Shown: one piece after another, positions 2,628 through 22,205 of the stretch | How positions within the stretch are numbered: the first letter of the stretch is position 1 | How the letters are laid out: each line of letters begins with the position of its first letter | DNA from: an uncultured Ruminococcus sp. | GTDB taxonomy: Bacteria; Bacillota; Clostridia; Oscillospirales; Ruminococcaceae | Assembly (NCBI RefSeq): GCF_947301925.1 | Contig: NZ_CAMYUE010000002.1 | Coordinates: 190,131-254,130 of the forward strand | Direction: 5' to 3' | DNA: 64,000 nucleotides | Notes under the pieces: generated by a model | Told to the model about the DNA's origin: nothing | Databases searched by the model: none | The model's input: the letters and a program-made list of their open reading frames with translations, nothing else | Translations under genes and position numbers: made by a program

Positions 2628-3518
2628 ATGGCTATGAAAAGATTCGTAAGGATATTCGGCGTACTGGCTGTGCTGCTGACGGCTGCTCTCCTTGCCGGCT
2701 GTCATGCAATGTACCCCATTACGGTAAATGTCAGCGGCAGCAGCATCGACGATGAATTTGTAGATATCCTCCTTCCCATAGATGAGGACGATACCAATTA
2801 CCTTATGATAAGCGGCGAGGCAGGATATGTCCTCAATATGGAAGACACCGGCGTAATGCGCACGGAGCTGTACAGCTACTGTGACGGCGGCTACAGAAGT
2901 ATGCTTATCCATCACGAGCTGTCCGATTACAGGATAACCCACGGCAGCAATACCGCCGAGGTAAATCTGTACCTCAACGGCCGGAAGGATTTCACGGAGA
3001 TGTGCGATAAATACCGCACTTTCAAAATAGCACTTGTCGACAGGAACGGAAATATCCTCGATGTTTCGGAGAAGTTCGATCTCAGCACATACAAGGGCGT
3101 ATACGTCGATAAGATAAACTACGACCGCAGCACAGGCAGATTTGATGTGAGTTATCTGTACAACAGATCGTTACTCATAGCGGTGACCGAGGCCGCAGCA
3201 GAGACTGCAATGCTGGCGATCCCCATGATAGCCGTACTCGGACTTGCGGCAATTATCATCATCAGAACGAAGGAAAAAGGCAATATACCAAATATCGCCC
3301 ACAGTCTGCTGTTTCTGATACCGCTGCTCCCACTTGTCCTGTATATCGTTATACGCATTGACTACGCCGTAAAGACCGCCGCTCCCCTGTCGGAGGCGTG
3401 GACGGACTTCACCGCCCTCAGCGGCGGAAATATCCTCATGGCGGCATACCGACTGCTGCCCGTTCCCATATTCATCGCCGTAACGGTTTGGGCAGCGATA
3501 AACAGGAAAAAACAATGA
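2628..3518 (+). CDS. Lipoprotein with C-terminal multi-TM region, function unknown
   Basis: Signal peptide with lipobox LLAGC, an extracytoplasmic domain of about 170 aa, then 3-4 hydrophobic helices. No family recognised. Confidence 0.6.
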   Translation: MAMKRFVRIFGVLAVLLTAALLAGCHAMYPITVNVSGSSIDDEFVDILLPIDEDDTNYLMISGEAGYVLNMEDTGVMRTELYSYCDGGYRSMLIHHELSDYRITHGSNTAEVNLYLNGRKDFTEMCDKYRTFKIALVDRNGNILDVSEKFDLSTYKGVYVDKINYDRSTGRFDVSYLYNRSLLIAVTEAAAETAMLAIPMIAVLGLAAIIIIRTKEKGNIPNIAHSLLFLIPLLPLVLYIVIRIDYAVKTAAPLSEAWTDFTALSGGNILMAAYRLLPVPIFIAVTVWAAINRKKQ

Positions 3519-3706
3519 TCCCTGCACGAGCAGCCCCACAGGACTTACAGGCATAATAAGCACAGCCCCCGATCTACAGGTAAAACTGCTTGTATCCGCT
3601 GTGCTGAGTAAAAAAATAAAAAATTTTTAAAAACCTCTTCCATTCTTATAAAAAATAGTGTATAATGTAAGGTGGTAAAAAATTCGCCACAGAAAGGACG
3701 ATACAA

Positions 3707-4069
3707 ATGCTTAATGAAGTAAAGGTCATAATCTGCGGTAAGGAGTACAAGATCAAGACCGCTGAAGCTCCCAATTACGTTTTTGCCCTGGCAAGAGCGC
3801 TGGAAACAAAGATAAACGAGATCACTTCAGCAAACGGTTCTTCTCCCTACGCAGCTTCCATAATGGTGTCGATGGCTCTCCTCGACGACCTCAACAAGGC
3901 TAATCAGCGCCTTGACAATATCCGCGACCAGACAAAGGAATATGTGGACGAGGCAGGCAGGACACGCATCGAGCGCGACGCTGCACAGAAGGAGATCGAG
4001 GTGCTCAAGTCCAAGATCGTTCAGCTTGAGAATATGGTCAAGCTCAAGCAGCTCAGCGACAGTATTTAA
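3707..4069 (+). CDS. zapA: Cell division protein ZapA
   Basis: 120 aa. The N-terminal VIICGKEYKIKT...YASIMVSMALLDDL pattern plus a C-terminal coiled coil is typical of ZapA. Its stop overlaps the next start (TAATG). Confidence 0.8.
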   Translation: MLNEVKVIICGKEYKIKTAEAPNYVFALARALETKINEITSANGSSPYAASIMVSMALLDDLNKANQRLDNIRDQTKEYVDEAGRTRIERDAAQKEIEVLKSKIVQLENMVKLKQLSDSI

Positions 4070-7010: not shown

Positions 7011-8027
7011 ATGTTTACAAAAGATATTGGCATTGATTTGGGAACTGCCAACACCCTTGTATATATGAGGGGAAAGGGCATAATAATAAGAGAGCCTTCG
7101 GTAGTTGCCGTAAATACCAGAACAGATAAATGCCGCTATGTCGGCAAGGAGGCAAAGGACGTCATCGGCAGGACCCCCGGTTCCATCGTTGCCGTAAGAC
7201 CTCTGAAGGACGGCGTTATCGCCGACTTCGACATAGCCACCACCATGCTTCAGGAATTCATCAGGAAGGCACTGAAGGGCACTCTCTTCACAAAGGCTAA
7301 CGTTATAATCTGTATCCCTTCGGGCGTTACGGCTGTCGAGAGGCGTGCGGTGCGCGAATCCTGCAAGAAGGCAGGCGCCAACAACGTCCTCATCATCGAG
7401 GAGCCCATGGCTGCCGCTATCGGCGCAGGTCTCCCCACAAACGAGCCCGCGGGAAGCATGATAGTTGATATCGGCGGCGGCACCAGCGAGGTTGCTGTCA
7501 TATCCATGGGCGGCATAGTTGCCTCACGCTCGGTAAGATGTGCAGGCGATGAGTTCGACGCGGCTATCATCAACTATATCAAGAAGAAGTACAACCTCCT
7601 CATAGGCGAAAGGACTGCCGAGAACATCAAGCTGGATATCGGCTCTGCCTTCCCCAGCGAGAAGGAGGAATCACAGGAGATAAAGGGCAGAAACCTCCTC
7701 AACGGACTCCCCGAGAATATCACCGTTACCTCAGCCGAGATACGCGACGCCCTCGTTGAGCCCCTTTCAAGAGTCATTGACGCTATCAAGTCCACTCTTG
7801 AGGAAACTCCCCCCGAGCTCTCCGCAGATATCATAGATCACGGCATCACCCTTGCAGGCGGCGGCGCTCTGCTCCGCGGCCTTGACAAGCTCATAAACCG
7901 CGAAACAGGTATGCCCGTTTATATCGCCGAGTACCCCCTGGACTGCGTTGCCGAGGGTACGGGAAAGATACTGGAGAATATCAGCGATTATCAGGACGCT
8001 CTCACCGAAAACGTCAAGTACTATTAA
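7011..8027 (+). CDS. mreB: Rod shape-determining protein MreB
   Basis: 338 aa with actin-fold motifs [20 protein letters not shown] and [12 protein letters not shown]. Confidence 0.95.
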
Positions 8028-8038
8028 GGAGGAGCGCC

Positions 8039-8905
8039 ATGCGTGATTTCTTAAAAAGCACCAGATTCAAGATATTGCTGGGCTTTCTCGCCTTCCTTGT
8101 GGGCATTATGATATACGCTGTCACCAAGGGCGGATATTCCGTTTCGGGAGCTTCCTTCATAAACACCATAACCAAGCCCTTCCGCTCTGCCTCAAACGGC
8201 ATTAGCATGAAGATGGAGGGCACGGTGGATAAGCTCTCCAATGCTGACAAATACTATGAGGAGAACCAGAAGCTCAAGAAGCAGATCGGCGAGCTCAATG
8301 CACAGCTCACGGAATACGACGCCATAAAGGCCGAGGTGGAGGAGCTCCGCAAGTTCGTCTCCATAAAGGAGGAGCACGAGGACTATATGCTCTCCCAGCC
8401 CTGCAAGGTACTGGGCTATGTGACCAACGATCCATTCAAGTCCTTCACTATCGACAGGGGCTCTGCCGACGGGATAAAGGTCAACTGTCCCGTTGTTACC
8501 GCAGAGGGTCTGGTAGGCATAACCGTTGAGGTCTCCGAGCACGTCTCAACCGTAAGGACCATACTCTCCCCCGACCTCTCCGTAGCTGCAATGGCTTCGT
8601 CCTCCAGCGCGGATCAGGGCATTATCGAGGGCAGTGTGCTGGCATCGGAAAACGGCCGCACCAGACTGATACACGTTCCCAAGAAGAACAAGCTCAAGCG
8701 CGGCGACCTTATGATAACCACGGGCACCAGCGGCCTCTTCCCCAAGGATTACCCCATAGGCACCATACTGGATATCGGTATCGACTCCAACGGTCTGTCG
8801 GTATGCGCCGATATACAGCCATGCGTCGATGTCAACCGTCTTACCTCTGTTATCGTCATCACCGATTTCAGCGGCAAGAAGGAGGAAGATAAGGATGAGG
8901 ATTAG
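8039..8905 (+). CDS. mreC: Rod shape-determining protein MreC
   Basis: 288 aa with an N-terminal TM, a coiled coil (ENQKLKKQIGELNAQL) and a beta-barrel domain (GLVGITVEV). Positioned between mreB and mreD. Confidence 0.9.
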   Translation: MRDFLKSTRFKILLGFLAFLVGIMIYAVTKGGYSVSGASFINTITKPFRSASNGISMKMEGTVDKLSNADKYYEENQKLKKQIGELNAQLTEYDAIKAEVEELRKFVSIKEEHEDYMLSQPCKVLGYVTNDPFKSFTIDRGSADGIKVNCPVVTAEGLVGITVEVSEHVSTVRTILSPDLSVAAMASSSSADQGIIEGSVLASENGRTRLIHVPKKNKLKRGDLMITTGTSGLFPKDYPIGTILDIGIDSNGLSVCADIQPCVDVNRLTSVIVITDFSGKKEEDKDED

Positions 8906-9473
8906 AACTACCCGTGAGCAGCGTATTTTCCGCTTCAAGACCACTCTCAGGTGGATAATATACTATCTGCTCATATTCATAAGCTTCATCATTATGACCT
9001 CGGGCACTCTTTACAAGCCCGTGATACTTGTCCCACTGGCTGTAGGCATTGCAATAAACAACAATATCTACGCCTCAGCCGTAACAGGAGCCATATGCGG
9101 CTTCCTCATCGATATATGCTGCGGTAAGCTCTTCGGCTATAACGCCGTGATACTGGCATTCTTCTGTATCGCCGCAAATCTGGTCTTTGAGCTCTACCTG
9201 AAGGACAGGTTCATAAACTACTTCATCATCACCGCTGCGGCTTCATTCCTCCAGTGCTGGCTGGACTACAAGTTCTATTACCAGATCTGGGGATATGAGA
9301 ACGTGGGCAGGATATTCAGGAAGGTATCCCTGAAAATATGGATATATACCGTGATATCCTCAGTATTCGTGTTCCTTGTGCTGAAGCTGGTGAACCGTCT
9401 CCTCATGCCCCGTGAGCACCTCACTATCGAGGAGGCCATAAATACCAATATACAATCGGAAAACAGACGATAA
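8895..9473 (+). CDS. mreD: Rod shape-determining protein MreD
   Basis: Polytopic membrane protein directly after mreC. I chose the internal ATG (codon 23 of track ORF 8829..9473), which is preceded by GGAGGAAGATAAGG. Confidence 0.75.
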   Translation: MRIRTTREQRIFRFKTTLRWIIYYLLIFISFIIMTSGTLYKPVILVPLAVGIAINNNIYASAVTGAICGFLIDICCGKLFGYNAVILAFFCIAANLVFELYLKDRFINYFIITAAASFLQCWLDYKFYYQIWGYENVGRIFRKVSLKIWIYTVISSVFVFLVLKLVNRLLMPREHLTIEEAINTNIQSENRR

Positions 9474-9525
9474 ACTCACCGACCGCACAGCAACGTGCGG
9501 TCATAATCATAAAGGAGGCAGACTT

Positions 9526-11793
9526 TTGAAAGGATTTGCGGAAAATCTCAAATCTATCCTGATAATACTGCTGGTGGTCGTTCTGGCTCTGCTCAGCTCC
9601 CTTCGCCTCATGAAGATACAGGTGGTAGGCGACAAGGAGATCAAGGCTCCGCAGCTGTATGAGCCGGGCACACTGACCTATACCAAGGGCATAAAGGCTA
9701 CCCGAGGCGAGATAATGGACTACGCAGGCAATCTGCTGGTGACCAACGACTCCCGAACCGACCTTGTGCTCCGCATGGCCTTCTTCCCCACAGACCTCCA
9801 GGAGGGCAACAGGGCTCTGCTGGGTATATACCGCGCTCTGGAGGAAAGAGGCATAAAGTTCAAGGAGTCTATTCCCATATCGTTCAACAAGCCATATGTT
9901 TTCAAGTCGGAGGACACGGAGGAGCTCATCTCCGACCTTAACCTCAATATCTACGCAACTGCGGACAACTGCATAGACAAGCTCATTTCCGACTATGAGA
10001 TAAGCGATAAGTATACCGACGAGGAAAAGCGTATCATCGCAGGTATGCGCTATCAGATGATAGACAAGGACTTCTCCTACAGCAACGATCTCCTCCTTGC
10101 AGAGGGCGTTGACGAGCAGACTGTCATAGATATGAAGGAGCTGGGCAACTTCTACCGCGGCATCGAAGCCATAGACGCCTCCGAAAGGCGCGTGGTGCGC
10201 GGCGATATCCTCCCCCATGAGATAGGCACTGTCGGTCCTATCTACGCAGAGGAATACGACGAGCTGAAAACAAAGGGCTACAGCTATAACGATACTCTCG
10301 GAAAGAGCGGTATCGAAAAGGCCATGGAAACTCCCCTCCGCGGTATCAACGGCGAGGAGCAGATAGCCGTCAAGGACGGCGTTGTACGCGATATCAGGAC
10401 CATCACCGAGGCCACCTCGGGCGAGACCGTAAAGCTCACCGTTGACGGAAGCTTCCAGCTGAAGCTCCAGGGCATACTGGACAATTTCCTGACCAATACC
10501 TTCCCCGCCCTCAATCCCAAGCCATGGGTGCTGAAGGGAAACTGCGGAGCCATATGCGTTCTTGACGCCAAGACAGGCGCTGTTAAGGGTATGGCCACTG
10601 CTCCCACCTATAACCTGAAGGACTACGTTGAGAATTACGAGTATTTCTTACAGGCCAAGGATTCACCTCTGGTAAACCGCTGTACCTACGGCCTTTACCG
10701 TCCCGGATCCACATTCAAGACCATAACCGCTACCGCAGGCCTCAACGAGGGCGTGGTAACAGGCGGCACTCCCCTTGTATGTAATCAGGGCTATGATTTC
10801 TACGGAACACATTACTCATGTACGGGTTATCACGGCAATATCACCATGCGCCGTGCAATCGAGGTATCATGCAACTCGTACTTCTACGAGGTATCCCGTA
10901 TGCTGGGTATCGACAATATTACAAAATACGCAAAGCTCTACGGACTGGGTGCCAGCACTGGCATAGAGACAGGCGACGCTCCCGGTTACCTCTGTAACCC
11001 CGAGACCTTTGCCGAGCACGGTCAAGAATGGTATATCGGTTACGTTATACAGGCAGGTATCGGTAACCAGGACTGCGGCATGACTCCCATTCAGATGGCA
11101 ACGGTCGCCAATACTATCGCAAACCGCGGTATCAGATATCAGCCATATCTCGTCGACAGCTACTATGACTACGGTACAGGCAGTCTCATCAGAAAGACCG
11201 AGCCCACCATTGCCCAGCAGATAGAGCTGAATACTCCCGACCTCTATGATTATATCGTAGGCGGTATGATGGACGCCGCAAAGAATATGCCTGCCAAGTA
11301 CTCGCTCAGCGACCTTGGCTTCGATGTGGCTATCAAGACAGGTACTCCCCAGACAGGTAAGGTGCTGGACGAGCAGAACTCCTTCTTCATCGGCTTCGCT
11401 CCCGCAAACAATCCCGAGATAGCCTTTGCAGGCGTTATCGAGAGCGGTGAATACTCCAAGTACATGATACGCGATATCCTTCTCGCATATCAGGAGTGCT
11501 ACGGTCTTAACGGAGTAAAGCCCACCAAGCAGAAGCTCCCCGAGGAGGTCCGTCACGAACTGGTGACCTCCACAACTACGGAGTCCACCATAACTACCAC
11601 CACTACAACCGAGGCTATCGTAACAACAGAAGCTCCCTATGTGCCCGAGACCGAGGCTCCCTATGAGCAGCCCCAGCAGCCTCAGCAGCAGCCCTGGACA
11701 GAATATCCCGCTGCTGTCCCCACAGAGCCTACAACTGCATACGACCCCAACGGCTACGCTCCCGAGGCCTCTCAGGAGCCCGACTACAACTGA
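9526..11793 (+). CDS. mrdA: Penicillin-binding protein 2 (elongation transpeptidase)
   Basis: 755 aa with a TM anchor, a PBP dimerisation domain and the transpeptidase triad GSTFK / SCN / KTGT. It has a Thr/Pro/Gln-rich C-terminal tail and a TTG start. Confidence 0.9.
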   Translation: MKGFAENLKSILIILLVVVLALLSSLRLMKIQVVGDKEIKAPQLYEPGTLTYTKGIKATRGEIMDYAGNLLVTNDSRTDLVLRMAFFPTDLQEGNRALLGIYRALEERGIKFKESIPISFNKPYVFKSEDTEELISDLNLNIYATADNCIDKLISDYEISDKYTDEEKRIIAGMRYQMIDKDFSYSNDLLLAEGVDEQTVIDMKELGNFYRGIEAIDASERRVVRGDILPHEIGTVGPIYAEEYDELKTKGYSYNDTLGKSGIEKAMETPLRGINGEEQIAVKDGVVRDIRTITEATSGETVKLTVDGSFQLKLQGILDNFLTNTFPALNPKPWVLKGNCGAICVLDAKTGAVKGMATAPTYNLKDYVENYEYFLQAKDSPLVNRCTYGLYRPGSTFKTITATAGLNEGVVTGGTPLVCNQGYDFYGTHYSCTGYHGNITMRRAIEVSCNSYFYEVSRMLGIDNITKYAKLYGLGASTGIETGDAPGYLCNPETFAEHGQEWYIGYVIQAGIGNQDCGMTPIQMATVANTIANRGIRYQPYLVDSYYDYGTGSLIRKTEPTIAQQIELNTPDLYDYIVGGMMDAAKNMPAKYSLSDLGFDVAIKTGTPQTGKVLDEQNSFFIGFAPANNPEIAFAGVIESGEYSKYMIRDILLAYQECYGLNGVKPTKQKLPEEVRHELVTSTTTESTITTTTTTEAIVTTEAPYVPETEAPYEQPQQPQQQPWTEYPAAVPTEPTTAYDPNGYAPEASQEPDYN

Positions 11794-11821
11794 CATAATA
11801 AGTCAAATATAGCAATAATTG

Positions 11822-11860
11822 AACAGCATTCGGAATTTATATCCCGAATGCTGTTTTTTT
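11822..11860 (+). terminator. Intrinsic terminator after PBP2
   Basis: 12-bp stem AACAGCATTCGG/CCGAATGCTGTT followed by T7. Confidence 0.85.
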
Positions 11861-11863
11861 GAC

Positions 11864-11892
11864 TTGACATAAGCAGATTTTACGGTTATAAT
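11864..11892 (+). promoter_or_regulatory. Sigma-A promoter for the VanW-family gene
   Basis: TTGACA, a 17-nt spacer, then TATAAT immediately after the terminator. Confidence 0.65.
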
Positions 11893-11910
11893 TGATAATA
11901 AATAAACAAA

Positions 11911-12771
11911 GTGGAGATGACAACAATCAAAAGGAAGCTTTTTTGCGAGATATCGCCCCTGACCTATGCGATATCCGAGAAAAAATGTATATTTATAAGG
12001 TCAGTGAAAAACCTTGTGGGGCTGCGGCACCTTGCAAAGACCAGACAGGAAAAGAATCTGAAGTATGTTATCTACAGGCATAATTCACTCATAAGACGCA
12101 GGCTGGGCAACGTAAATATGGAGCTCCAGGAGAACAAGGCTGTAAACCTCGGCCTTGCCGCTCCGAAAATAAACAAGATACTTATACGCCCCGGCGAGAC
12201 CTTCTCATTCTGGTATCTGGTGGGAAAGACCACTGCCAAAATGGGCTACAAGGAGGGACTTACCATATTCGGCGACCACACCGCTTCGGGAACAGGCGGC
12301 GGAATGTGCCAGATGACAAATCTCATCCACTGGATGATACTTCATTCGGAAATGAAGATAACCGAGCACCACCACCATGACGGTCTCGATCTCTTCCCCG
12401 ACTTCCAGCGAAAGATCCCCTTCGGCACAGGTACATCCATAATGTACAATTATCTGGACTACCGCTTCAGGAATACCACTGACAGAACGTACCAGCTCAT
12501 AGTGTATACTACCGATGAATACCTCTGCGGCGAGCTCCGTGCGGACAGCCCCCAGCGCTACAAGTACCATATACAGGCCGAGGACGTTTACTTCTCCCGC
12601 GAGAACGGCGTTGTCTACCGCAACGGCAAGGTCTACCGCGACAAGGTGGACTGCGTCACAGGCAACCACCTTGGCAGAAAGCTCATCCGCGTGAACCACG
12701 CAAAGGTAATGTACGATACCGAGGGTCTGGATATCAGGGAGGAAGTCCCCTCCGAAGAAGCTACAGTATAA
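11911..12771 (+). CDS. VanW family protein
   Basis: 286 aa. The conserved VanW core (GETFSFW...GGGMCQMTNLIHW) is recognised. The exact start is uncertain (GTG 11911 or ATG 11917). Confidence 0.78.
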   Translation: MEMTTIKRKLFCEISPLTYAISEKKCIFIRSVKNLVGLRHLAKTRQEKNLKYVIYRHNSLIRRRLGNVNMELQENKAVNLGLAAPKINKILIRPGETFSFWYLVGKTTAKMGYKEGLTIFGDHTASGTGGGMCQMTNLIHWMILHSEMKITEHHHHDGLDLFPDFQRKIPFGTGTSIMYNYLDYRFRNTTDRTYQLIVYTTDEYLCGELRADSPQRYKYHIQAEDVYFSRENGVVYRNGKVYRDKVDCVTGNHLGRKLIRVNHAKVMYDTEGLDIREEVPSEEATV

Positions 12772-12783
12772 ACAGTACAGTTT

Positions 12784-12822
12784 TGCCCCGAAGCATATCA
12801 AAGAGCTTCGGGGCATTTTATT
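12784..12822 (+). terminator. Intrinsic terminator after VanW
   Basis: 11-bp stem TGCCCCGAAGC/GCTTCGGGGCA followed by TTTTATT. Confidence 0.85.
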
Positions 12823-12920
12823 CGTAAGCTATACGGTCTACGTTATTTTTATTGATAGTCTTTTCCTTTTCTATGTATATTTTCCGATTTTATGACAAAA
12901 ATAATGTCGGAGGTGTTAGT

Positions 12921-13709
12921 GTGAAGAAAAACGAACTGACCGATAAGCATTACGGAAAAGGCTCAAAGGGCTTCTACGCCGCACTGGGTATCAGCGCCGT
13001 CATGATAGGAGCTGCCTGCCTTTTCGCTCACAAGCAGGGGGACAAGCTCCCGGAGATACGTCCCTCGGCGGAAAAAGCGCCAATAGTACAGGACGCTCAG
13101 GTCAACAGGCCTGTTACCGACATACCCAAGGTCACAGCTCCGGCATACAGAGTTACGACACAGACTGTCACCGCTCCTGTGTTCAGCGACGAACCTCAGG
13201 TCACCATTCCTGCTGCGGATATCATCGCCGATGTCCCGCCCGGACAGGAACACGGCTTTGCGGAGCAGCCAGCGGCGGCGGTGGAGAATATGTCGGGGGC
13301 AGGAGCTCCGCTGAAAGAAATGAGCAATGTACTGACCCCTTTCAGCGGCGGCGAGCTGGTAAAGAACGAGACCACAGGCACCTGGCAGACCCATAACGGT
13401 ACGGATATTGCCGCCGAGGTGGGAACTGACGTCTATGCCACTGAAAGCGGCGAGATAACCGCTGTCACAAAGGATCCTCTCTGGGGCGTGACAGTCCTCA
13501 TCGACCACAAAAACGGCTTTACCACAAAATACTGCGGACTTGGCTCCGATCTTGCGGTACAGCAGGGCGATACCGTCACCACAGGCGACCTCATCGGAGC
13601 TGTGGGCGAAACAGCTGATATAGAGAGCTCGGTACAGAGCCATCTGCATATCGAGATAACCCACAACGGAGACTTTATTGACCCCATGACCGTTCTCAGC
13701 ACACAGTAA
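12921..13709 (+). CDS. M23 (LytM-type) metallopeptidase, membrane anchored
   Basis: HNGTDIAA...DVYA...HLHIEITHNG matches the M23 HxxxD / HxH motifs, and there is an N-terminal TM. The start is moved to the GTG preceded by GGAGGTG (codon 24 of the track ORF). Confidence 0.85.
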   Translation: MKKNELTDKHYGKGSKGFYAALGISAVMIGAACLFAHKQGDKLPEIRPSAEKAPIVQDAQVNRPVTDIPKVTAPAYRVTTQTVTAPVFSDEPQVTIPAADIIADVPPGQEHGFAEQPAAAVENMSGAGAPLKEMSNVLTPFSGGELVKNETTGTWQTHNGTDIAAEVGTDVYATESGEITAVTKDPLWGVTVLIDHKNGFTTKYCGLGSDLAVQQGDTVTTGDLIGAVGETADIESSVQSHLHIEITHNGDFIDPMTVLSTQ

Positions 13710-14389: not shown

Positions 14390-14719
14390 CTATCTGGGGG
14401 GAAGGAACGAATTCAATGTATTGACAAACTTCAGAACATTTCCTTCATTTCTTGATTTTGCAGCGATCTCTGTACCAAGATTTGACACGCTGGCAATATT
14501 CACGCCTGTCTTTCCGTCGGGAAGGACACCCAGTGTGATATTTACCTTTTCACCGTATGTCAGAAGTGAGAGACCTGTAGAAAACTGCACCTTATATGCT
14601 GCTCTGTCAGCCTTCTTGAGCTTCAGCTTCAGAGTGGAACCGGTACGCATGACCGCATCCAGCACATAATTTATATCATAATTGTAGACATAGTTCTGCT
14701 CATAATGTCCCCAAGCCAT
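14390..14719 (-). CDS. Hypothetical protein
   Basis: 109-aa ORF with coding-like composition and an RBS (AGGAGGGAACAGCTATG). No family recognised. Confidence 0.5.
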   Translation of the reverse strand: MAWGHYEQNYVYNYDINYVLDAVMRTGSTLKLKLKKADRAAYKVQFSTGLSLLTYGEKVNITLGVLPDGKTGVNIASVSNLGTEIAAKSRNEGNVLKFVNTLNSFLPPR

Positions 14720-14739
14720 AGCTGTTCCCTCCTAAGAAA

Positions 14740-15603
14740 TTATGCCTTGTTAACGCTTCCGAAGAGCTCCATCTTCTCCTTGACCTTAGCCTTGATAGCC
14801 TCAACACCGGGTGCGAGAAGCTTTCTGGGATCGAAGCCCTTGCCCTGCTTGTCCTTGCCTGCCTCAACGTAGCCTCTTGTAGCCTCAGCGAATACCAGCT
14901 GGCACTCTGTGTTAACGTTGATCTTTGCAACGCCGAGAGAGATAGCCTTTGTGATCATATCGTCGGGGATACCTGTACCGCCGTGGAGAACCAGAGGCAT
15001 ATCGCCTACTGTCTTGTTGATAGCCTCGAGAGTCTCAAAGCTGAGTCCCTCCCAGTTTGCAGGATATACGCCGTGGATATTACCGATACCTGCTGCGAGG
15101 AAATCTACGCCAAGATCAGCGATCATCTTGCACTCTGCGGGATCTGCGCACTCGCCCTTGCCGATAACGCCGTCCTCTTCGCCGCCGATAGCGCCTACCT
15201 CTGCCTCGATTGAGAGACCAAGGTTATGAGCAGCGTTTACCAGCTCTGTTGTCTTGGCAACGTTCTCGTCGATGGGGAAGTGTGAACCGTCGAACATGAT
15301 AGATGTAAAGCCTGCCTTGATGCACTTGTAGCAAGCCTCATATGAGCCGTGGTCGAGGTGAAGTGCAACGGGAACTGTGATACCGAGAGACTTGTCCATT
15401 GCTGCTACCATAGCTGCAACTGTCTCGAAGCCGCACATATACTTGCCTGCGCCCTCTGATACACCGAGGATAACGGGAGAATTGCACTCCTGAGCTGTAA
15501 GGAGAATAGCCTTAGTCCACTCAAGGTTGTTGATATTGAACTGACCAACTGCGTATTTGCCTGCTCTTGCTTTCTGGAGCATTTCTGTAGCTGAAGTTAA
15601 CAT
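14740..15603 (-). CDS. fba: Fructose-bisphosphate aldolase, class II
   Basis: 287 aa with HLDHG, MFDGSH and LVLHGGTGIP motifs of class IIB aldolases. Confidence 0.95.
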   Translation of the reverse strand: MLTSATEMLQKARAGKYAVGQFNINNLEWTKAILLTAQECNSPVILGVSEGAGKYMCGFETVAAMVAAMDKSLGITVPVALHLDHGSYEACYKCIKAGFTSIMFDGSHFPIDENVAKTTELVNAAHNLGLSIEAEVGAIGGEEDGVIGKGECADPAECKMIADLGVDFLAAGIGNIHGVYPANWEGLSFETLEAINKTVGDMPLVLHGGTGIPDDMITKAISLGVAKINVNTECQLVFAEATRGYVEAGKDKQGKGFDPRKLLAPGVEAIKAKVKEKMELFGSVNKA

Positions 15604-15657
15604 AGATATAATTCCTCCTGAGAATTCATTTACGGGGCTTCTGACCCCATCGTTAAT

Positions 15658-15686
15658 ATTATATCATAGCTTGCTGTGAATTGCAA
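15658..15686 (-). promoter_or_regulatory. Sigma-A promoter for fba
   Basis: On the - strand: TTGCAA, a 17-nt spacer, then TATAAT with an extended TG (TGATATAAT). Confidence 0.65.
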
Positions 15687-15911
15687 GAGTTTAATAAAAA
15701 TTTAGCAATAATAGTCTATTCAGCAAGTTTTTAGCGATCAGTGTGCACAGTGAATAGCAGAACTGATCAGACAGGCTGTTTACAAGGCTTTATGAGGATA
15801 ATGCTTCAGGTAAGATATCCGATGAACGCTGCGCTATGATATCGGCGGGATATGAGGACGAGCTGATGGAGAGCCTTTTCTTGAATAAATGCTGTTTCAG
15901 GCGTTCTGTTC

Positions 15912-16280
15912 TCAGAGCAGAACTTCATTCGTTCGATACTGTATTTCGTAATGAAGTACCTTTTTACACAAGTTACAGTAGGTTTTTATTTCACGGCGCT
16001 GGTATTCGCGCTTTACCCAATAAATACGTAATCTATTAGTAAATAGTCCATAACCCGCAGACACCCCGGGAACAGCGATACTCTCTTCTTTATAAGTTAC
16101 CCAGCCTGAATCCTCAGTAACTACATGATAACTTCCTCCATGACAATTATTACAAGTAGTTGCACTTGCAACAATTGTGTTGTCCTTCTGCGGTGCGATA
16201 GTTTTTGTTAAGGTTGTTCCTGTTCCAAGGAGTGTGAATGCCATAGCAACTGCTATGAGTTTTTTGAATGCCTTTTTCAT
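15912..16280 (-). CDS. Small secreted Cys-containing protein, unknown function
   Basis: 122 aa with a signal peptide (MKKAFKKLIAVAMAFTLLG). It sits in a locally A+T-rich patch. Confidence 0.5.
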   Translation of the reverse strand: MKKAFKKLIAVAMAFTLLGTGTTLTKTIAPQKDNTIVASATTCNNCHGGSYHVVTEDSGWVTYKEESIAVPGVSAGYGLFTNRLRIYWVKREYQRREIKTYCNLCKKVLHYEIQYRTNEVLL

Positions 16281-16521
16281 TGTGTATCAAGTCCTTTACA
16301 TAATATTTAAGGGAACGCCCCTTATGCCGATATTATATATTACTTTCAAACTATTGTCAATATTTTTGTGTGATTATTCACAAATAAGAAACAAATGATA
16401 CAGGCAAGCCACATATGTAATTACTTGCAGAGAACGCCGCCTCCCCACGTTCCATGCAGTTATTTTGTAGTGGCACACAGTGTTCGCCTGTTTGTTTGCT
16501 TGGATATCCCAATACAAATAC

Positions 16522-16547
16522 AGGGGCTGATGACTACATCAGCCCCT
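16522..16547 (-). terminator. Intrinsic terminator of the DtxR-MurL-like-MurD-like-BFD operon
   Basis: 11-bp perfect stem AGGGGCTGATG/CATCAGCCCCT, with T-rich sequence after it on the - strand. Confidence 0.75.
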
Positions 16548-16592
16548 ACAAATCGTATATTGCATAAAGTCGAGGGCGGCGTCCCATGCCTA

Positions 16593-16790
16593 TCATGCCA
16601 TCATAATTTCTGATATAACTTTCATTATGTCATCATGACAGCCGCCGCAGCCCGTGGAACAGTGAGTAGCTTCCTGTACCTTGTCGAACAAAGCCACAAC
16701 GTCTGTGAGCTGCTCATTATCGTGAAGAGCGTCCTCAACATCGAAATAGGTAACGCCCATGCAGTGACATATCTCGTAATTCTCTTTCAT
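16593..16790 (-). CDS. BFD-like [2Fe-2S]-binding domain protein
   Basis: 65 aa with the Cys pattern CHC...(about 37 residues)...C..C..C typical of bacterioferritin-associated-ferredoxin-like domains. The ATG start sits 8 nt after GAGAGG (codon 4 of the track ORF). Confidence 0.75.
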   Translation of the reverse strand: MKENYEICHCMGVTYFDVEDALHDNEQLTDVVALFDKVQEATHCSTGCGGCHDDIMKVISEIMMA

Positions 16791-16818
16791 TTCAAACACC
16801 TCTCTGTAGCAAGTGAGT

Positions 16819-18162
16819 TTACTTCATATCGGAAACAAGCTTCTTGAAGGCGTCGCCGCGCTCCTCGAAGTTCTTGAATATGCCGTAGCTTGCAGCCGCA
16901 GGCGACATAACGCAGCTCATGCCCTCGGGAGTTATCTCCGCAGCAAGCTTCACTGCGTCCTCAAGGTGGTCTGCGTAGTATACGCGGGATCTTTTCATGA
17001 ACTCTTCCCTTGCCTGTATCATATCATATACTCTCTTTCCTGAAGCCTCCATGCAGATGACTCTCACGTCAAAGTCCGCAAGGAAGTCCACAAGGGGGGT
17101 ATAGTCGATGCCTCTGTCCATACCGCCTATGAGGATAGTTCCCACCTCGGGAACGCTCTGCAATGCAGATATTGCCGTAGCACAGGCAGTTGAGATAGAA
17201 TCGTCATACCAGCGTATGCCATTTACGGTGTCCACATATTCAAGGCGGTGAGCCAGCGGAGAGAATGTACAGAGAGCCTTTGTGAAGTCACCCTCCCGTA
17301 TGAACATGATTGCGATAAAGTAGGCAACAGCTATGTTGTAGTGATTGTGAACGCCGAGAAGCTTCACCTTGTCGGTGGGGATAACGTAGGGCTCTGCGCA
17401 GTGAACCATGCCGCTGTTCACATAAACATCGGCGCTGCTGTCCCTGTCAGAGACAGTGTAGGTGTTCCATGAGACAGGCTCTTTCGGAGCAATATCCGAA
17501 TTAATGAGCAGAACGTCGTTCTCATGCTGGTGCAGGTATATGTTCTTCTTGGCGTTATAGTAGTTTTCAAGTGTGCCGTAATGGTCGAGGTGCTCCTCAT
17601 AGAGATTGAGGAATACCGCGTACTTCGGCGATACGGTCATATACTCCAGCTGGTGGCACGAGAGCTCGCAGACCACGACTGTGTCCTCCTCCATGCCCTC
17701 GGCGATGTCGAAGACGGGGATACCGATATTTCCTGCGATACGGCAGTCAACTCCGCTCTCCTTCAGCACATGATATATAAGAGAGGTAACGGTGCTCTTG
17801 CCCTTGGTGCCCGTGATGCCGATTATCTGCTCGCGGAACACCTCGAAGAACACCTGCGTCTCGCAGGTTATCATGCAGGAGAGCTCCGAAAGCGGCTTCT
17901 CCAGCACGATACCAGGGCTCTTGAATACCATATCGAAGCTGTTCAGGCAGTCCTGATATTCCTTGCCGCATATGAGCTCCACGCTGTCGGGAAGGCCGTT
18001 CGCCTCACGGTCTACGGGATTGAGGTCGGCAATGGCCAGCGAGGCCTGTGCGCCGTATTTCTCAAGTATCCTGTAGGTGGACTTTCCCTCCCTGCCGAAG
18101 CCGAGTATGCACACTCTCCTGCCGTCGGTGTACCGTTTTATATAGTCTCCGAAATTATTCAA
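16819..18162 (-). CDS. MurD-type Mur ligase with a non-canonical glutamate-site motif (MurD2-like candidate)
   Basis: 447 aa with a Rossmann N-domain (VCILGFGREGKST), P-loop GITGTKGKSTV and C-domain LIGGMDRGIDY. The canonical MurD motif NDSKATN reads DDSISTA here. The TTG start overlaps the upstream stop (TTGA). Confidence 0.8.
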   Translation of the reverse strand: MNNFGDYIKRYTDGRRVCILGFGREGKSTYRILEKYGAQASLAIADLNPVDREANGLPDSVELICGKEYQDCLNSFDMVFKSPGIVLEKPLSELSCMITCETQVFFEVFREQIIGITGTKGKSTVTSLIYHVLKESGVDCRIAGNIGIPVFDIAEGMEEDTVVVCELSCHQLEYMTVSPKYAVFLNLYEEHLDHYGTLENYYNAKKNIYLHQHENDVLLINSDIAPKEPVSWNTYTVSDRDSSADVYVNSGMVHCAEPYVIPTDKVKLLGVHNHYNIAVAYFIAIMFIREGDFTKALCTFSPLAHRLEYVDTVNGIRWYDDSISTACATAISALQSVPEVGTILIGGMDRGIDYTPLVDFLADFDVRVICMEASGKRVYDMIQAREEFMKRSRVYYADHLEDAVKLAAEITPEGMSCVMSPAAASYGIFKNFEERGDAFKKLVSDMK

Positions 18163-19541
18163 AGCAGACGCTCCATTTCATTCTTTAGTATAGTTTTGAA
18201 TTCGTCGGGCAGAAGATTCTGCTCGTTGAAGGAGCTGCAATACTCCTTGTTGATGCGGTCAATGCTGACCGGGCTGTACATTCCCAGCGCCTTGTATTCC
18301 TCAAACAGCAGCGGGAGCTCCTCTCCTTCACGTTCAAGCCTGCGTATGGCAAGGGACACCGCAAGGTTCACCTCGTCGATACTGCCCACGCACTCAAAGG
18401 GCTTGTGCTCTGAGCGTCCTATGAGCTCGATGAAGTATTCCTTCATCTTCTCATCGTTGAGCATATCCTTTCCGAAAATGCCCCTGAGCTCAGAAAGGCT
18501 GAGGAAGGGCGAGAGTATCAGGCTGACAAACAGGCACTTGGGACACTCTCCGCACCATATATCGGGAGATACCTTGCTGCCCAGATTGCAGCTCCTGAAC
18601 ACGGGGAGATACTTTCTGTGAGATACGAACATCTTCGCTATCTGGAACTCTGAAAGAGGTCTCAGGAAGCTGAAGTAATACTGTCCCGTGCGCAGGTACT
18701 TCTCCTCATAGCTGTGGAAGTCCTGCTCGAACTCGAAGCTCTTGGAATACTGGTGATTAACGTCCTGCCCCACAACAGTGCTCTCGTTGGCGCTGGACTC
18801 GTTGGACAGAACGATGTATTTCAGGTCGTTGAGGTATGCGGTTATCTCCGCAGAAAAGGCAACTATCGCCGAAAAAGGCGTATGGCCGTTGATGAAGCCC
18901 TTACTGTTAAGGTCTACCAGCGAGCGGTCAAAGTGACGGTGAGCCGTTATCAGTGCCGACTCGGGAAGTCCCGCAGCCGCTACCGTACCGCTTATGGAGC
19001 GGCGCTTGTTTATGGAATAGCACTTGCAGTCCATGCCTGCGCCCACAAGAGTCTCAAGAGTGAGGGCTGAGTCCTTTCCGCCGCCTATTGGCACAAGACA
19101 GCCCTTGGGCTGACGGTCGGTCTCGGCAAGGGAGCTGTCATAGCTTCCCGCGGAGACTATCTCCACAAAGTCGTCGGGATCGGCAGATATGCCGTTTACG
19201 AAGAAAAGCTCGCCGAGTCCCATGAACCACAGCTTCTTCCACCACTTCTTCTGCTCCTCGTCCAGTTCTCCGCATTCTGCGCGGAAAAACGGCGAGCAGG
19301 TGGCCTTCCAGTAGCTTACCGCCTCGGCCATACCCAGTGAAAACGCCAGCCTTTCAAACTTCAGGTCGCCCTTTACGGACATACCCGCAGGCCTGGCAAA
19401 TGTCCAGCTGGGACGGAACTCCGCAAGTCCCTCTATGCCGAATTTATAGCCGATCTCAACGGTCTCGGCAGTCTCGTTGACGTTATAGGATCTGTAAACA
19501 AAAACGGGATACTTCTCCCTGAATTCTTCAAATTTACCCAT
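18159..19541 (-). CDS. PP-loop-like ATP-utilising protein (MurL-like epimerase candidate)
   Basis: 460 aa with PIGGGKDSALT (a variant of the PP-loop SGGxDS) and a C-terminal CGECPKC. It is translationally coupled to the MurD-type ligase. The start is ATG, 5 nt after GGAGG. Confidence 0.6.
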   Translation of the reverse strand: MGKFEEFREKYPVFVYRSYNVNETAETVEIGYKFGIEGLAEFRPSWTFARPAGMSVKGDLKFERLAFSLGMAEAVSYWKATCSPFFRAECGELDEEQKKWWKKLWFMGLGELFFVNGISADPDDFVEIVSAGSYDSSLAETDRQPKGCLVPIGGGKDSALTLETLVGAGMDCKCYSINKRRSISGTVAAAGLPESALITAHRHFDRSLVDLNSKGFINGHTPFSAIVAFSAEITAYLNDLKYIVLSNESSANESTVVGQDVNHQYSKSFEFEQDFHSYEEKYLRTGQYYFSFLRPLSEFQIAKMFVSHRKYLPVFRSCNLGSKVSPDIWCGECPKCLFVSLILSPFLSLSELRGIFGKDMLNDEKMKEYFIELIGRSEHKPFECVGSIDEVNLAVSLAIRRLEREGEELPLLFEEYKALGMYSPVSIDRINKEYCSSFNEQNLLPDEFKTILKNEMERLL

Positions 19542-19561
19542 TGCTGCCTCCGCTCGGTGTC

Positions 19562-19951
19562 TCACTTTCCGTCCTCATTATTTCCCGAAAGCTTCAGATA
19601 ATGCGCCTTCAGAAGCGAAAAAGTCTCATCTGAGATATCATGCTCCACCTTGCAGGCGTCCTCTGCGGCGATATCCTTCTTGACGCCAAGATATGTGAAG
19701 AATGAAGTGAGTACTGTGTGTCTGTCATATATATGCTCCGCAACTCTGCGGCCTGCGTCCGTAAGCTTTATATGATTATCCCCGTCAACAGTCACAAGTC
19801 CCTCGTCCTTCATCTTCTTGAGTATGATAGATACCGTGGGGCGCGAATATCCGAGGTATGAGCATATATCTATAGCATGAACATCAGGCTGCTTCTGGGA
19901 AAGAATAAGAATGGTCTCCAGATAGTTTTCAACTGCTTCAGTAATAGCCAT
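19562..19951 (-). CDS. DtxR/MntR-family metal-dependent transcriptional regulator
   Basis: 129 aa. ENYLETILIL...IDICSYLGYSRPTVSIILKKMKDEGLV is the DtxR-type wHTH, followed by a metal-binding/dimerisation helix region. Confidence 0.85.
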   Translation of the reverse strand: MAITEAVENYLETILILSQKQPDVHAIDICSYLGYSRPTVSIILKKMKDEGLVTVDGDNHIKLTDAGRRVAEHIYDRHTVLTSFFTYLGVKKDIAAEDACKVEHDISDETFSLLKAHYLKLSGNNEDGK

Positions 19952-20004
19952 AACGATTCTCCTTTGATAAAATTTTTACCGTGTTAATCATTGTATACAT
20001 ATTC

Positions 20005-20033
20005 ATTATATCATACTATCCGCAAAAAAGCAA
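20005..20033 (-). promoter_or_regulatory. Sigma-A promoter of the DtxR-led operon
   Basis: On the - strand: TTGCTT, a 17-nt spacer, then TATAAT with an extended TG. The palindromic TGTATACA lies just downstream and is a possible operator. Confidence 0.6.
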
Positions 20034-20100: not shown

Positions 20101-22158
20101 TCACAGCAGAGGATGACGGCGGAAATCCCACGAGGTCTCGAAGCTGTCCCAGTCCTGACGGCACAGGGCGATATTCTCCCTTACAAGAGCGTTTATCTCC
20201 CGGCTCTGTCCGGTTTTTCCGGGCATGGGCAGCCTTGCTATATCCCCGGGGTTCATGTTGAGTGTGGGATTCAGCACACGGGAGAGCTCGCGGACAGGCT
20301 TGCTGTTAAGCAGTCCCAGCAGGAAGAGCAGCGCCTCCTCATCATCGGGGAAGGCACTGGTGCCCGCCACGTTGAACATAAAGTTTTCGTCGAAATACCG
20401 CACGGAAAGCTCTCCGCTGGTTATCTGCGACCAGCTTACCGAGGGGCGGAAATTATAGGCAAGCCCCTGGGGACGCGAACGGAGCTTCCCCTTTTCGTCG
20501 CGGAAATCGTTTATCTCGGCGCCGTCGTTCTCCCAGTTCACTACGAACTCGCGGTTCCCGTACCACTTTCGGTAGCTGCCGCCCTTGTTGAGCAGATACC
20601 ATTTCTTTTTACGACTGCCCGAAAATGCAGTATTGTTCTTTTCAACCTCAAACCACCTGCGCAGGAAACGGTCATTGTCTCCAGTTATAAGCCCTTCGCG
20701 GACGGGTATGAGACTCCCCAGCGGTACGCCCTCAAAAGCACGGAGTACAGCCTTCCCAGGCCAGTATGCCACAGGAGAAGTCGGGATCCGCAAGAAATCC
20801 GCCGCCGAAGCTGTGAAGCGGTATCGGCAGTCCTTCTCCGACAGGGCCGAAAGCACCATTTTACGCTGCTGTTCCATATCTCCCCTGAAGTCTGTCAGCC
20901 GCAGGAATATGCCTGTATCGGAAGAATGGTCCTTTCTTGCCGTGAACGAACACAGGGGCACAGTGGCGTCCCCAAAAGCAGAATACTCGAAATGAATGAG
21001 GGTCTGCACAGGACACTCGGTACATATCAGCCGCCGAAGTTTCTCATAGGACTGCAGAAAGAGCCATGTAGCAGGAGTCAGGAAGCCGATATATCCGCCT
21101 TTGCGGAGGTTTTTTATGCTCCTCGCCATAAAGGCTGAAAACAGATCTGCGCTGTAATCACGGTAGTCCCTGTCCATCAGCTCCGACAGCTCGCGGTTCA
21201 TGGCGGACTTTCCAAGGTAGGGAGGATTGGTCACAATTATGTCGTAATCCTGAGTCAGAAGCTGACCGATAATTGCGCTCTTATCATTACGCTCCGTAAG
21301 ATCATCGCAGCTCATGAGTGAGCCTGCCGCCTGACTTATACCTGCAAAATCATACACCATAGGACGTGCTGACGAGCCGTATGCGGCCGCTTTCATGCGC
21401 AGGGCAGTCTCCGCCAGAGCCCTCGCCCTCTCGTCCAGCTCAAGGCCGAAAAGATTGCAGCCGAGGGTCTTGTCTGCCGCCTCTTTATCCGTATATCCAC
21501 ATTTGCGGTAGAGCTCCATGAAAACGTCAAAGGCATAGAGCAGCACATTGCCGCTGCCCATGCATGGGTCAATGAACCTTATTTCCTCCGGAGCGCGTTT
21601 TTCCGCCTCGGCACCGCCGCCGAAGCTCAGCTCCCCTGCGCCGGTATCATAGCCCATGCCCCGCAGATACACGGTCAGGGTATTCTGCACCATATACCTC
21701 ACTATCCACCGCGGAGTGAATATCTGTGTCGCCGCCGCTATCCTGTCTGCGCTTAGACGTTTGCTGTTTTTCAGACCTGCAGCGATCTCGTTCCTGATAG
21801 GCTCGTTGAAATACTGGTGGAGCTGTCCCAGTGCGTATCCGCCGTCAGATAATGCGTCGCCCAGCATGAGGAGCTTCGCAGCTGTTCCGCCGTCAGCTAT
21901 CAGCTGCGGCGGAACGGGCAGCTCGGGGTACAATGTGAATATACCGCCGGATATGCCGCCGAGCTGCCTGCACTTTTCCGTGAAAAGTGCACTGCGAAGC
22001 TCCCCAGGGGCGTCCATAAGTGCGGAGATAAAGTCGGGCTCAGCCATATATGCCGCGCATAGCCGCATAAAACCGTAATAGGCCGTCTTTTCGTCGGAAT
22101 CCGCCATGAGCTCGTTTCTGGCGCTTACGGCGAATCGTTTCAGCTGTGCTGTATCCAC
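20101..22158 (-). CDS. PglX-like (BREX-type / type IIG-like) N6-adenine DNA methyltransferase, short form
   Basis: AATQIFTPRWIVRYMVQNTL (the PglX N-domain hallmark), motif I IDPCMGSGN and motif IV TNPPYLGK. It ends right after SWDFRRHPLL. The GTG start is 6 nt after AGGAGG (codon 9 of the track ORF). Confidence 0.8.
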   Translation of the reverse strand: MDTAQLKRFAVSARNELMADSDEKTAYYGFMRLCAAYMAEPDFISALMDAPGELRSALFTEKCRQLGGISGGIFTLYPELPVPPQLIADGGTAAKLLMLGDALSDGGYALGQLHQYFNEPIRNEIAAGLKNSKRLSADRIAAATQIFTPRWIVRYMVQNTLTVYLRGMGYDTGAGELSFGGGAEAEKRAPEEIRFIDPCMGSGNVLLYAFDVFMELYRKCGYTDKEAADKTLGCNLFGLELDERARALAETALRMKAAAYGSSARPMVYDFAGISQAAGSLMSCDDLTERNDKSAIIGQLLTQDYDIIVTNPPYLGKSAMNRELSELMDRDYRDYSADLFSAFMARSIKNLRKGGYIGFLTPATWLFLQSYEKLRRLICTECPVQTLIHFEYSAFGDATVPLCSFTARKDHSSDTGIFLRLTDFRGDMEQQRKMVLSALSEKDCRYRFTASAADFLRIPTSPVAYWPGKAVLRAFEGVPLGSLIPVREGLITGDNDRFLRRWFEVEKNNTAFSGSRKKKWYLLNKGGSYRKWYGNREFVVNWENDGAEINDFRDEKGKLRSRPQGLAYNFRPSVSWSQITSGELSVRYFDENFMFNVAGTSAFPDDEEALLFLLGLLNSKPVRELSRVLNPTLNMNPGDIARLPMPGKTGQSREINALVRENIALCRQDWDSFETSWDFRRHPLL

Positions 22159-22180
22159 ATTATACCTCCTCACAATTTCC

Positions 22181-22205
22181 AAAGGCGGACATGAAGTCCG
22201 CCTTT
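22181..22205 (-). terminator. Stem-loop between the GNAT stop and the PglX-like start
   Basis: Perfect 10-bp stem AAAGGCGGAC/GTCCGCCTTT. The U-tract on the - strand is weak, so it may attenuate rather than terminate. Confidence 0.45.

Follow-up and report, generated by a model that had tools for sequence, protein, structure and literature searches.

Whether a member of the Firmicutes might use the two-enzyme MurD2/MurL route to D-glutamate is the question raised by a four-gene operon from an uncultured Ruminococcus sp. (Oscillospirales). The operon lies in the stretch analysed here, 64,000 nucleotides of contig NZ_CAMYUE010000002.1 (positions 190,131 to 254,130), which we call the window. The canonical route consists of the glutamate racemase MurI, or a D-amino-acid aminotransferase, and a D-glutamate (D-Glu)-specific MurD that is encoded after mraY in the dcw cluster. 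The other route is that of MurD2 (XOO_1320) and MurL (XOO_1319) in Xanthomonas oryzae, and orthologues of both have been verified in Micromonospora and in Salinispora (Feng et al. 2017; reviews PMC8788868 and PMC5808125). A preliminary description, made from the letters of the window alone, had suggested a pathway of this type in a Firmicute. The suggestion is upheld by the MurL Pfam domains and shared motifs of one protein, Glu182 and Arg348 in the other, the near-universal adjacency of the two genes, their fusions and the PP-loop fold. We believe, with a probability of about 75%, that the locus is a Ruminococcus murL-murD2 operon, the Firmicute version of the MurD2/MurL route. This reading is based on homology, motif conservation, fold, gene linkage and gene fusions.

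The second gene of the operon encodes a protein of 460 amino acids. Its identical database protein (P0001) carries precomputed Pfam matches to MurL_N (PF26299) and MurL_epimerase_C (PF26298), and the same two domains are found on all 120 of the listed homologues. Our local copy of Pfam, from which the two MurL models are absent, gave no match for the 460-aa protein, nor for the PGAP-annotated MurL of X. sacchari. As a bona fide MurL also gives nothing, the empty scan is an artefact. Checked against the NCBIfam model of MurL in Xanthomonadales (NF041275), the protein matches profile positions 57-394 of 447 with an E-value of 3.3e-69, a match below the cut-off of the model. On the same model X. 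sacchari MurL scores 836.5, a Pseudonocardia homologue 323 and a Pseudobutyrivibrio homologue 249. The score of the 460-aa protein indicates homology and does not certify equal function. BLASTP with X. sacchari MurL gave 35% identity over 324 amino acids (E=7e-53).

The motifs GGGKDS, NGHxP, SNExSA, NHQ[YW]SK, SCN..WCGxCPKC and KPFECVG do not vary among the window protein, the MurL of X. sacchari and five further proteins. In the window MurL the PP-loop GGGKDS occupies residues 153-158, the four-cysteine motif is formed by C318, C330, C333 and C336, and KPFECVG lies at residues 380-386. All the motifs read from the window earlier, PIGGGKDSALT and CGECPKC together with GITGTKGKST and DDSISTA, are found in the sequences. 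The X. sacchari murL-murD pair used for these comparisons was taken from a record in a plasmid collection that is really chromosomal DNA. Many of the "plasmid" records in PLSDB (L091, which is NZ_CP010410.1, and others) are chromosomal fragments or whole chromosomes with murD, mraY and similar genes, and the stereochemistry given there is wrong for MurD2, the L-glutamate (L-Glu)-adding type characterised in X. oryzae.

An AlphaFold2 model of MurL, built on an alignment of 32 sequences, had a predicted local distance difference test score of 94.4 and a predicted template-modelling (TM) score of 0.92. Foldseek comparison of this model with the PDB gave QatC as the best match (9y01_B, E=3e-5), with a probability of 1.00 to QatC and QueC and a target TM-score of 0.61 to B. 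subtilis QueC (3bl5); Cap9, TtuA and MnmA were matched as well. MurL thus shares the alpha/beta PP-loop fold of QueC, QatC and Cap9 and of the PP-loop ATP pyrophosphatases TtuA and MnmA, with TM-scores of 0.61-0.63 on the QueC side. The MurL family profile matches the PP-loop of TtuA (E=2.5e-4). The alignment of MurL with E. coli QueC by hhalign (E=1.9e-4) covers both the PP-loop, in which GGGKDS is aligned with SGGQDS, and the cysteine motif, in which C318-x11-C330-G-x-C333-x2-C336 (C-x11-CGxCxxC) is aligned with TCYNGFKGDGCGHCAAC. The model and the alignments support a QueC-like PP-loop core with a four-cysteine motif in MurL, and the PP-loop fold proposed earlier for an ATP-dependent epimerase is borne out by them. 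Compared with QueC, MurL is extended by ~140 aa that form an additional N-terminal domain and by a helical domain at the C-terminus, the identity between the two is 13-17%, and no sequence model places MurL in the QueC-like family. No solved MurL structure turned up when the PDB was searched by sequence, and our literature searches found no paper on one.

QueC-type enzymes adenylate carboxylates, and therefore a QueC-like PP-loop core fits the ATP-to-AMP chemistry of MurL. In QueC the cysteines of this motif bind Zn (3BL5). By analogy, MurL may, like QueC, adenylate a carboxylate to activate it and set AMP free; the outcome would be the epimerisation of a peptide residue and not the formation of an amide or nitrile. 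In previous work MurL was described as lacking known conserved domains, as using one ATP with the release of AMP, and as probably adenylating the alpha-carboxylate (PMC8788868, PMC5808125).

The third gene encodes the Mur ligase, for which we use the residue numbers of E. coli MurD in the literature numbering without Met1. Glu197 and Arg358 of X. oryzae MurD2, equivalent to D182 and K348 of E. coli, set the specificity, as the E197D/R358K double mutant changes from L-Glu to D-Glu; E. coli MurD K319T gains acceptance of L-Glu, and the P433A and F435L mutants of MurD2, at the positions of E. coli A414 and L416, stay L-Glu-specific, so that those two residues are no determinants (PMC8788868). The window ligase has Glu at 182 (YE-E-H), Ile at 319 (DDSISTA), Thr at 321, Arg at 348 (GGMD-R-G), Ala at 414 and Tyr at 416, and it retains T321, S415 and F422. 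It departs from canonical MurD by Ile319, instead of the Lys of NDSKATN, and by Glu182. The lysine of NDSKATN had been taken for a contact of D-Glu in the preliminary description, which is wrong: it is K319 of E. coli, and the contacting Lys348 lies in GGDGK, which reads GGMDR here.

The same residues recur in the MurL-linked ligases of 79 species. Arg348 and Ile319 are present in 79 of 79, Tyr416 is nearly invariant, and position 182 is occupied by Glu in 70 and by Asp in nine. X. sacchari MurD2 likewise has Glu182, Ile319 (NDSISTT) and Arg348. Canonical MurDs carry Asp, Asn, Ala or Thr at 182 (Glu in none of 11 sampled) and mostly Lys319 in NDSKATN, whereas the window ligase has the residues of the MurD2 type. 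It shares with canonical MurD the three-domain Mur-ligase architecture, the P-loop and the equivalents of H183 and K198, and it passes the murD model TIGR01087 with 323.7 bits against a cut-off of 211.95. X. sacchari MurD2 also passes this model with 298 bits, and because a bona fide MurD2 is accepted too, TIGR01087 cannot separate MurD from MurD2. In a neighbour-joining tree of 91 sequences, of the kind the preliminary description had called for, the MurL-linked Firmicute ligases formed a clade in 171 of 200 bootstraps and were joined with X. sacchari MurD2 in 150 of 200.

Two MurDs of Oscillospiraceae carry a mixture of these residues. The enzymes of Pusillibacter faecalis (L093 2995-4371) and Subdoligranulum variabile (L094 ~2974-4365) have Ile319 (NDSIASS and NDSIATS), Asn182 and Lys348, and there is no murL within 3 kb of either gene. 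The Pusillibacter murD adjoins fba, as does the murL-linked ligase gene in Ruminococcus, and the small gene that adjoins it is not BFD-like. These MurDs may be intermediates, or may mark the ancestral locus of the MurD2-type ligase.

The pairing of the two genes extends far beyond the window. The murL family comprises 2,668 clusters at 50% identity (E<=1e-3), and a scan with one genome per GTDB species gave at least 590 loci. We examined the best 80 of these loci. Nearly all belong to rumen or gut Firmicutes, namely Ruminococcus, Lachnospiraceae (among them the isolate Pseudobutyrivibrio xylanivorans DSM 14809), Oscillospiraceae and Erysipelotrichaceae (among them Bulleidia and Solobacterium). 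In all but one of the 80 (79 loci) murL is immediately followed, on its own strand, by a murD-type gene, and three of the 79 are fused open reading frames (ORFs). The murL-then-murD order with an overlap is also found in X. sacchari. In the window the TTG start of the ligase gene overlaps the TGA stop of murL (TTGA), as had been read earlier. This overlap, with a GGAG ribosome-binding site 7 nt upstream, is kept in 13 of 15 Ruminococcus loci, one of the 13 being ATGA. The two genes are translationally coupled and belong to one transcription unit. About one third of the closest 150 MurL representatives are 840-1250 aa long, and all eight that were scanned are MurL-MurD or MurD-MurL fusions.

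Such natural fusions are common and include P0126, P0128, P0153, P0168, P0187, P0195, P0198 and P0206 and, among the loci, L063 (9995-12646), L065 (4663-7260) and L088 (1524-4226). P0206 (1247 aa) has a third domain at its C-terminus, an M20-type amidohydrolase, and P0195 and P0198 have long linkers or N-terminal extensions.

The location of the pair also points to the cell wall. In seven Erysipelotrichales-like loci murL-murD lies downstream of the dcw genes mraZ-rsmH-ftsL-ftsI, with mraY in six of the seven and often with secDF and a haloacid dehalogenase-type hydrolase, and no murD other than the murL-linked one was found in the dcw region of these seven. In another locus (L082) the pair adjoins mraZ..murE, which brings the loci in or beside a dcw cluster to eight. 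In R. flavefaciens murL-murD abuts mreBCD, the gene of penicillin-binding protein 2 (PBP2) and an M23 peptidase gene. The adjacency to dcw and mreBCD genes therefore indicates a role in peptidoglycan synthesis. Canonical murD is found directly after mraY in Bacillus, Listeria, Staphylococcus, Paenibacillus, Bacteroides and Sphingomonas; the window ligase gene instead follows murL.

The published distribution of MurD2/MurL comprises Xanthomonadales, a few Alphaproteobacteria and Micromonosporaceae, with low-similarity matches in cyanobacteria, a fungus and an amoeba (PMC8788868, PMC5808125). In our literature searches no paper that describes MurL or MurD2 from Firmicutes came up. What is new here is the probable presence of a known two-enzyme system in a phylum for which it had not been described; the MurL family itself was already delineated in Pfam. 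Beyond the single locus, the pair is widespread in gut and rumen Firmicutes and MurL has a QueC-like PP-loop and four-cysteine architecture.

The locus resembles the X. oryzae system in the overlapping murL-then-murD pair, in all the MurL motifs, in Glu182 and Arg348 and in the NDS-I-ST type of motif. By analogy, the predicted chemistry would be the ligation of L-Glu followed by an ATP/AMP-dependent L-to-D epimerisation on the nucleotide dipeptide. MurL would adenylate the alpha-carboxylate of the terminal L-Glu at its QueC-like PP-loop site, converting ATP to AMP, and the adenylation would render the alpha-proton acidic. The invariant Cys384, His220, His263 and Lys267 are candidate acid/base residues, and a structural Zn, like that of QueC, is probably bound by the four-cysteine motif. 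We infer the substrate chirality, the adenylation and the metal content from the enzymes of Xanthomonas, Micromonospora and Salinispora (PMC8788868, PMC5808125).

Several points weigh against a MurD2/MurL route in this operon. The 233.5 bits of the 460-aa protein on NF041275 are far under the equivalog cut-off of 700, in a model that was built for Xanthomonadales only, and the protein is 29-35% identical to MurL of the X. oryzae-type system. The ligase is 27% identical to X. sacchari MurD2, no closer than to canonical MurDs (26-31%), and its grouping with MurD2 in the tree depends on distances that are saturated at ~1.7. Support from the tree for the grouping with Xanthomonas MurD2 is moderate at most. 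Arg348 is found also in canonical MurDs of Bacilli and Ile319 in the two Oscillospiraceae MurDs without an adjoining murL, and the window ligase has Ala414 and Tyr416 where the Xanthomonas enzyme has Pro and Phe. The host is a Firmicute, a phylum missing from the published distribution. There are also MurL-family genes without an adjoining Mur ligase, on three Pseudonocardia plasmids and in one Ruminococcus metagenome-assembled genome (L043 6582-7973). One of them is the stand-alone MurL of the Pseudonocardia alni plasmid pPaSha1 (L092 4809-6209), which scores 323 bits on the MurL model; the Pseudonocardia proteins are annotated as hypothetical. From these stand-alone genes, the MurL family may not have a single function, and some members may act on another substrate.

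The ligase might accordingly be an ordinary housekeeping D-Glu MurD, with the MurL homologue acting in the proofreading or salvage of mis-ligated L-Glu precursors or on another carboxylate, and with D-Glu coming from MurI or a D-amino-acid aminotransferase. The TIGR01087 score (323.7 against 212), the retained T321, S415 and F422, Arg348 in Bacilli and Ile319 in Pusillibacter and Subdoligranulum are all in line with this, and the place of the Pusillibacter murD beside fba hints at an ancestral murD locus. A tblastn search with E. coli MurI gave no match in the window and ~1.3 Mb of related loci, which says nothing on the rest of the genome. However, TIGR01087 accepts a bona fide MurD2 as well, and Glu182 occurs in none of the 11 canonical MurDs, as opposed to 70 of the 79 MurL-linked ligases and Xanthomonas MurD2. 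That the two are translationally coupled, and have repeatedly been fused in either order, speaks for enzymes that act one after the other on a single substrate. Moreover, the characterised MurL works in one direction, from L to D, and requires the L-Glu dipeptide that only MurD2 makes (PMC8788868). We consider an ordinary MurD unlikely on these grounds and retain the murL-murD2 assignment.

The first and last genes of the operon raise a separate question. The product of the first matches PF01325 (Fe_dep_repress, 38 bits) and PF02742 (Fe_dep_repr_C, 52 bits), both over cut-off. It scores 87 and 54 bits on the NCBIfam MntR models and stays under the cut-offs of all named equivalogs (MntR, DtxR). 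Among solved structures its closest relative is E. coli MntR (2h09, 9e-15), followed by IdeR/DtxR, and its Cys-x2-Glu-His aligns with C102/E105/H106 of IdeR. The regulator gene lies 5' of murL in all 14 Ruminococcus-clade species loci in which the upstream flank is present, with 66-88% identity, and upstream of murL in no other genus among the 80 loci. The last gene encodes a BFD-like protein (PF04324, 42.2 bits against a cut-off of 26) with four cysteines in a CxC...CxxxCxxC motif. It is present only in the species of the window (L001-L004) and in L011; the remaining 79 GTDB-species loci, R. flavefaciens included, lack it. In the X. oryzae-type system the pair has neither this regulator nor, as in the window species, a BFD-like gene, and the preliminary description had rightly placed both outside the described system. 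The two genes were considered as parts of a conserved system and rejected, since the regulator is linked only in Ruminococcus and the BFD gene is found in two species; they are clade-specific accessories and not parts of the pathway.

The regulator would most likely control its own promoter, and thereby the whole unit, by Fe or Mn. The 8-bp palindrome TGTATACA was considered as its operator and rejected: neither it nor any other inverted repeat is shared by the promoters of the window and of 14 Ruminococcus loci, which are simply AT-rich here, and L005 has AGTATATATACT at the same place. A further extension would wire the essential D-Glu step of wall synthesis to the metal status of the cell, with the regulator gating murL-murD2 by Fe or Mn, the four-cysteine site holding an Fe-S cluster as in TtuA, and the BFD-like protein serving as cluster or electron partner. 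We regard this as very unlikely; if true, MurL would be a metal- or redox-dependent epimerase and the supply of cell-wall precursors would be tied to iron availability.

The preliminary description had also offered a metal-controlled pair of Mur ligase and PP-loop protein that builds another amide-linked metabolite. In a fuller form of this proposal the BFD-like protein would take part, the product would be for instance a metallophore or a modified nucleotide, and the DtxR-type repressor would adjust expression to Fe or Mn. A DtxR/MntR-family regulator with an IdeR-like Cys/Glu/His site at the head of the operon, its linkage in the 14 Ruminococcus loci and a [2Fe-2S] protein at the end would suit such a pathway. 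Against it, the regulator is absent from all murL-murD loci outside Ruminococcus and the BFD gene is confined to two species. The conserved core is murL-murD alone, and other Firmicutes have this pair within or beside the dcw cluster. Both proteins retain the catalytic motifs of peptidoglycan enzymes, and no transporter or other biosynthetic gene is linked. The proposal is left unsupported and appears extremely unlikely. The chance that the 460-aa protein serves in anti-phage defence, as a QueC-like component of the QatC/Cap9 type, is next to nil: QatC is its top structural match (9y01_B, E=3e-5), Cap9 is matched too and the neighbouring gene at 20101-22182 fits PglX or type IIG methyltransferase models, but PADLOC gives no match for the protein, QatA, QatB, QatD and neighbours of the cyclic-oligonucleotide-based anti-phage signalling system (CBASS) are lacking, the MurL homology is strong and specific, and the methyltransferase gene, which lies upstream of the promoter of the operon and so belongs to another transcription unit, is unlinked in other genera.

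The operon consists of four co-directional genes on the minus strand, from 19951 to 16593, flanked by a promoter with a conserved TGnTATAAT element and by a strong terminator, and all four genes read in the preliminary description are present (Table 1). The generic promoter scan passed over the operon promoter because its -35 element matches only 3/6 bases. The TGnTATAAT element is nevertheless present 5' of the regulator gene in the window and in 14 of 14 related Ruminococcus loci (TGnTATAAA in L023), and both the -35 and the -10 are identical or near-identical in the R. flavefaciens-like loci L005 and L007. The mechanical ORF of the 460-aa protein opens at GTG 19565. Gene callers use ATG 19541, which is preceded by a GGAGG ribosome-binding site (19551-19547), and the homologues are 459-466 aa long, nearly all of the 120 listed being of 460 aa. 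An Rfam scan of the whole window gave no match.

Table 1 Features of the proposed murL-murD2 operon in the window
Feature	Coordinates	Strand	Basis and details
Promoter	20005-20033	-	Sequence read; -35 TTGCTT (20033-20028), 17-nt spacer, extended -10 TG-a-TATAAT (20013-20005)
Two-domain metalloregulator of the DtxR/MntR family, 129 aa, without SH3 domain	19562-19951	-	Pfam
MurL homologue, 460 aa	18159-19541	-	NCBIfam, precomputed Pfam, BLASTP, motifs, AlphaFold2
MurD-type ligase, 447 aa	16819-18162	-	Pfam MurD-like_N, Mur_ligase_M and Mur_ligase_C; TIGR01087
BFD-like [2Fe-2S] protein, 65 aa	16593-16790	-	PF04324
Intrinsic terminator with a 14-bp stem (7 G-C pairs), a loop of 4 nt and a T-rich tail	16519-16550	-	Sequence read
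8-bp palindrome TGTATACA, just 3' of the -10, candidate operator only	19992-19999		Sequence read

The surroundings of the operon hold further genes of the cell wall. The region 7011-13709 contains mreB-mreC-mreD-PBP2 and two M23 peptidase genes. In R. flavefaciens-like contigs the operon runs in the same direction as mreBCD, directly after the M23 peptidase gene; compared with these contigs (L005 9598-14156), the block of regulator, murL, murD, bfd where present, fba and a 109-aa ORF (window 14390-19951) is inverted relative to mreBCD-PBP2-M23. A MurC-type Mur ligase gene lies at 594-2018 (plus strand), away from any dcw cluster, its product being 31% identical to E. coli MurC, and a LexA-type repressor gene follows after 4 nt (2022-2603, plus strand). 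Between the operon terminator and fba, an ORF of 122 aa (15912-16280, minus strand) has a signal-peptide-like N-terminus and a CxxC motif and no Pfam match; its promoter (16360-16332) is a perfect TTGACA-17-TATAAT. On the other side of the operon, the gene at 20101-22182 (minus strand) encodes a 693-aa PglX-like or type IIG restriction-methyltransferase (PADLOC PglX, E=9e-170), which covers only the C-terminal two-thirds of the models. No other genes of the bacteriophage exclusion (BREX) system adjoin it, and the same gene is found near the operon region in R. flavefaciens-like contigs.

With the assignment of a QueC-like PP-loop and a four-cysteine motif, the adenylation mechanism that has been proposed for MurL acquires a concrete basis in structure. 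The MurD2/MurL route has been described as restricted to a few genera, and for that reason as a narrow-spectrum drug target against Xanthomonas and Stenotrophomonas (PMC8788868). Because at least 590 GTDB species have the pair, often fused or located in or beside the dcw cluster, the consequences would be wider if the Firmicute pairs are functional. Inhibitors of the pathway would also strike major commensals, and annotation pipelines would be mislabelling L-Glu ligases as D-Glu ligases and MurL as "hypothetical". The D-glutamate supply of many anaerobes would then need to be re-examined.

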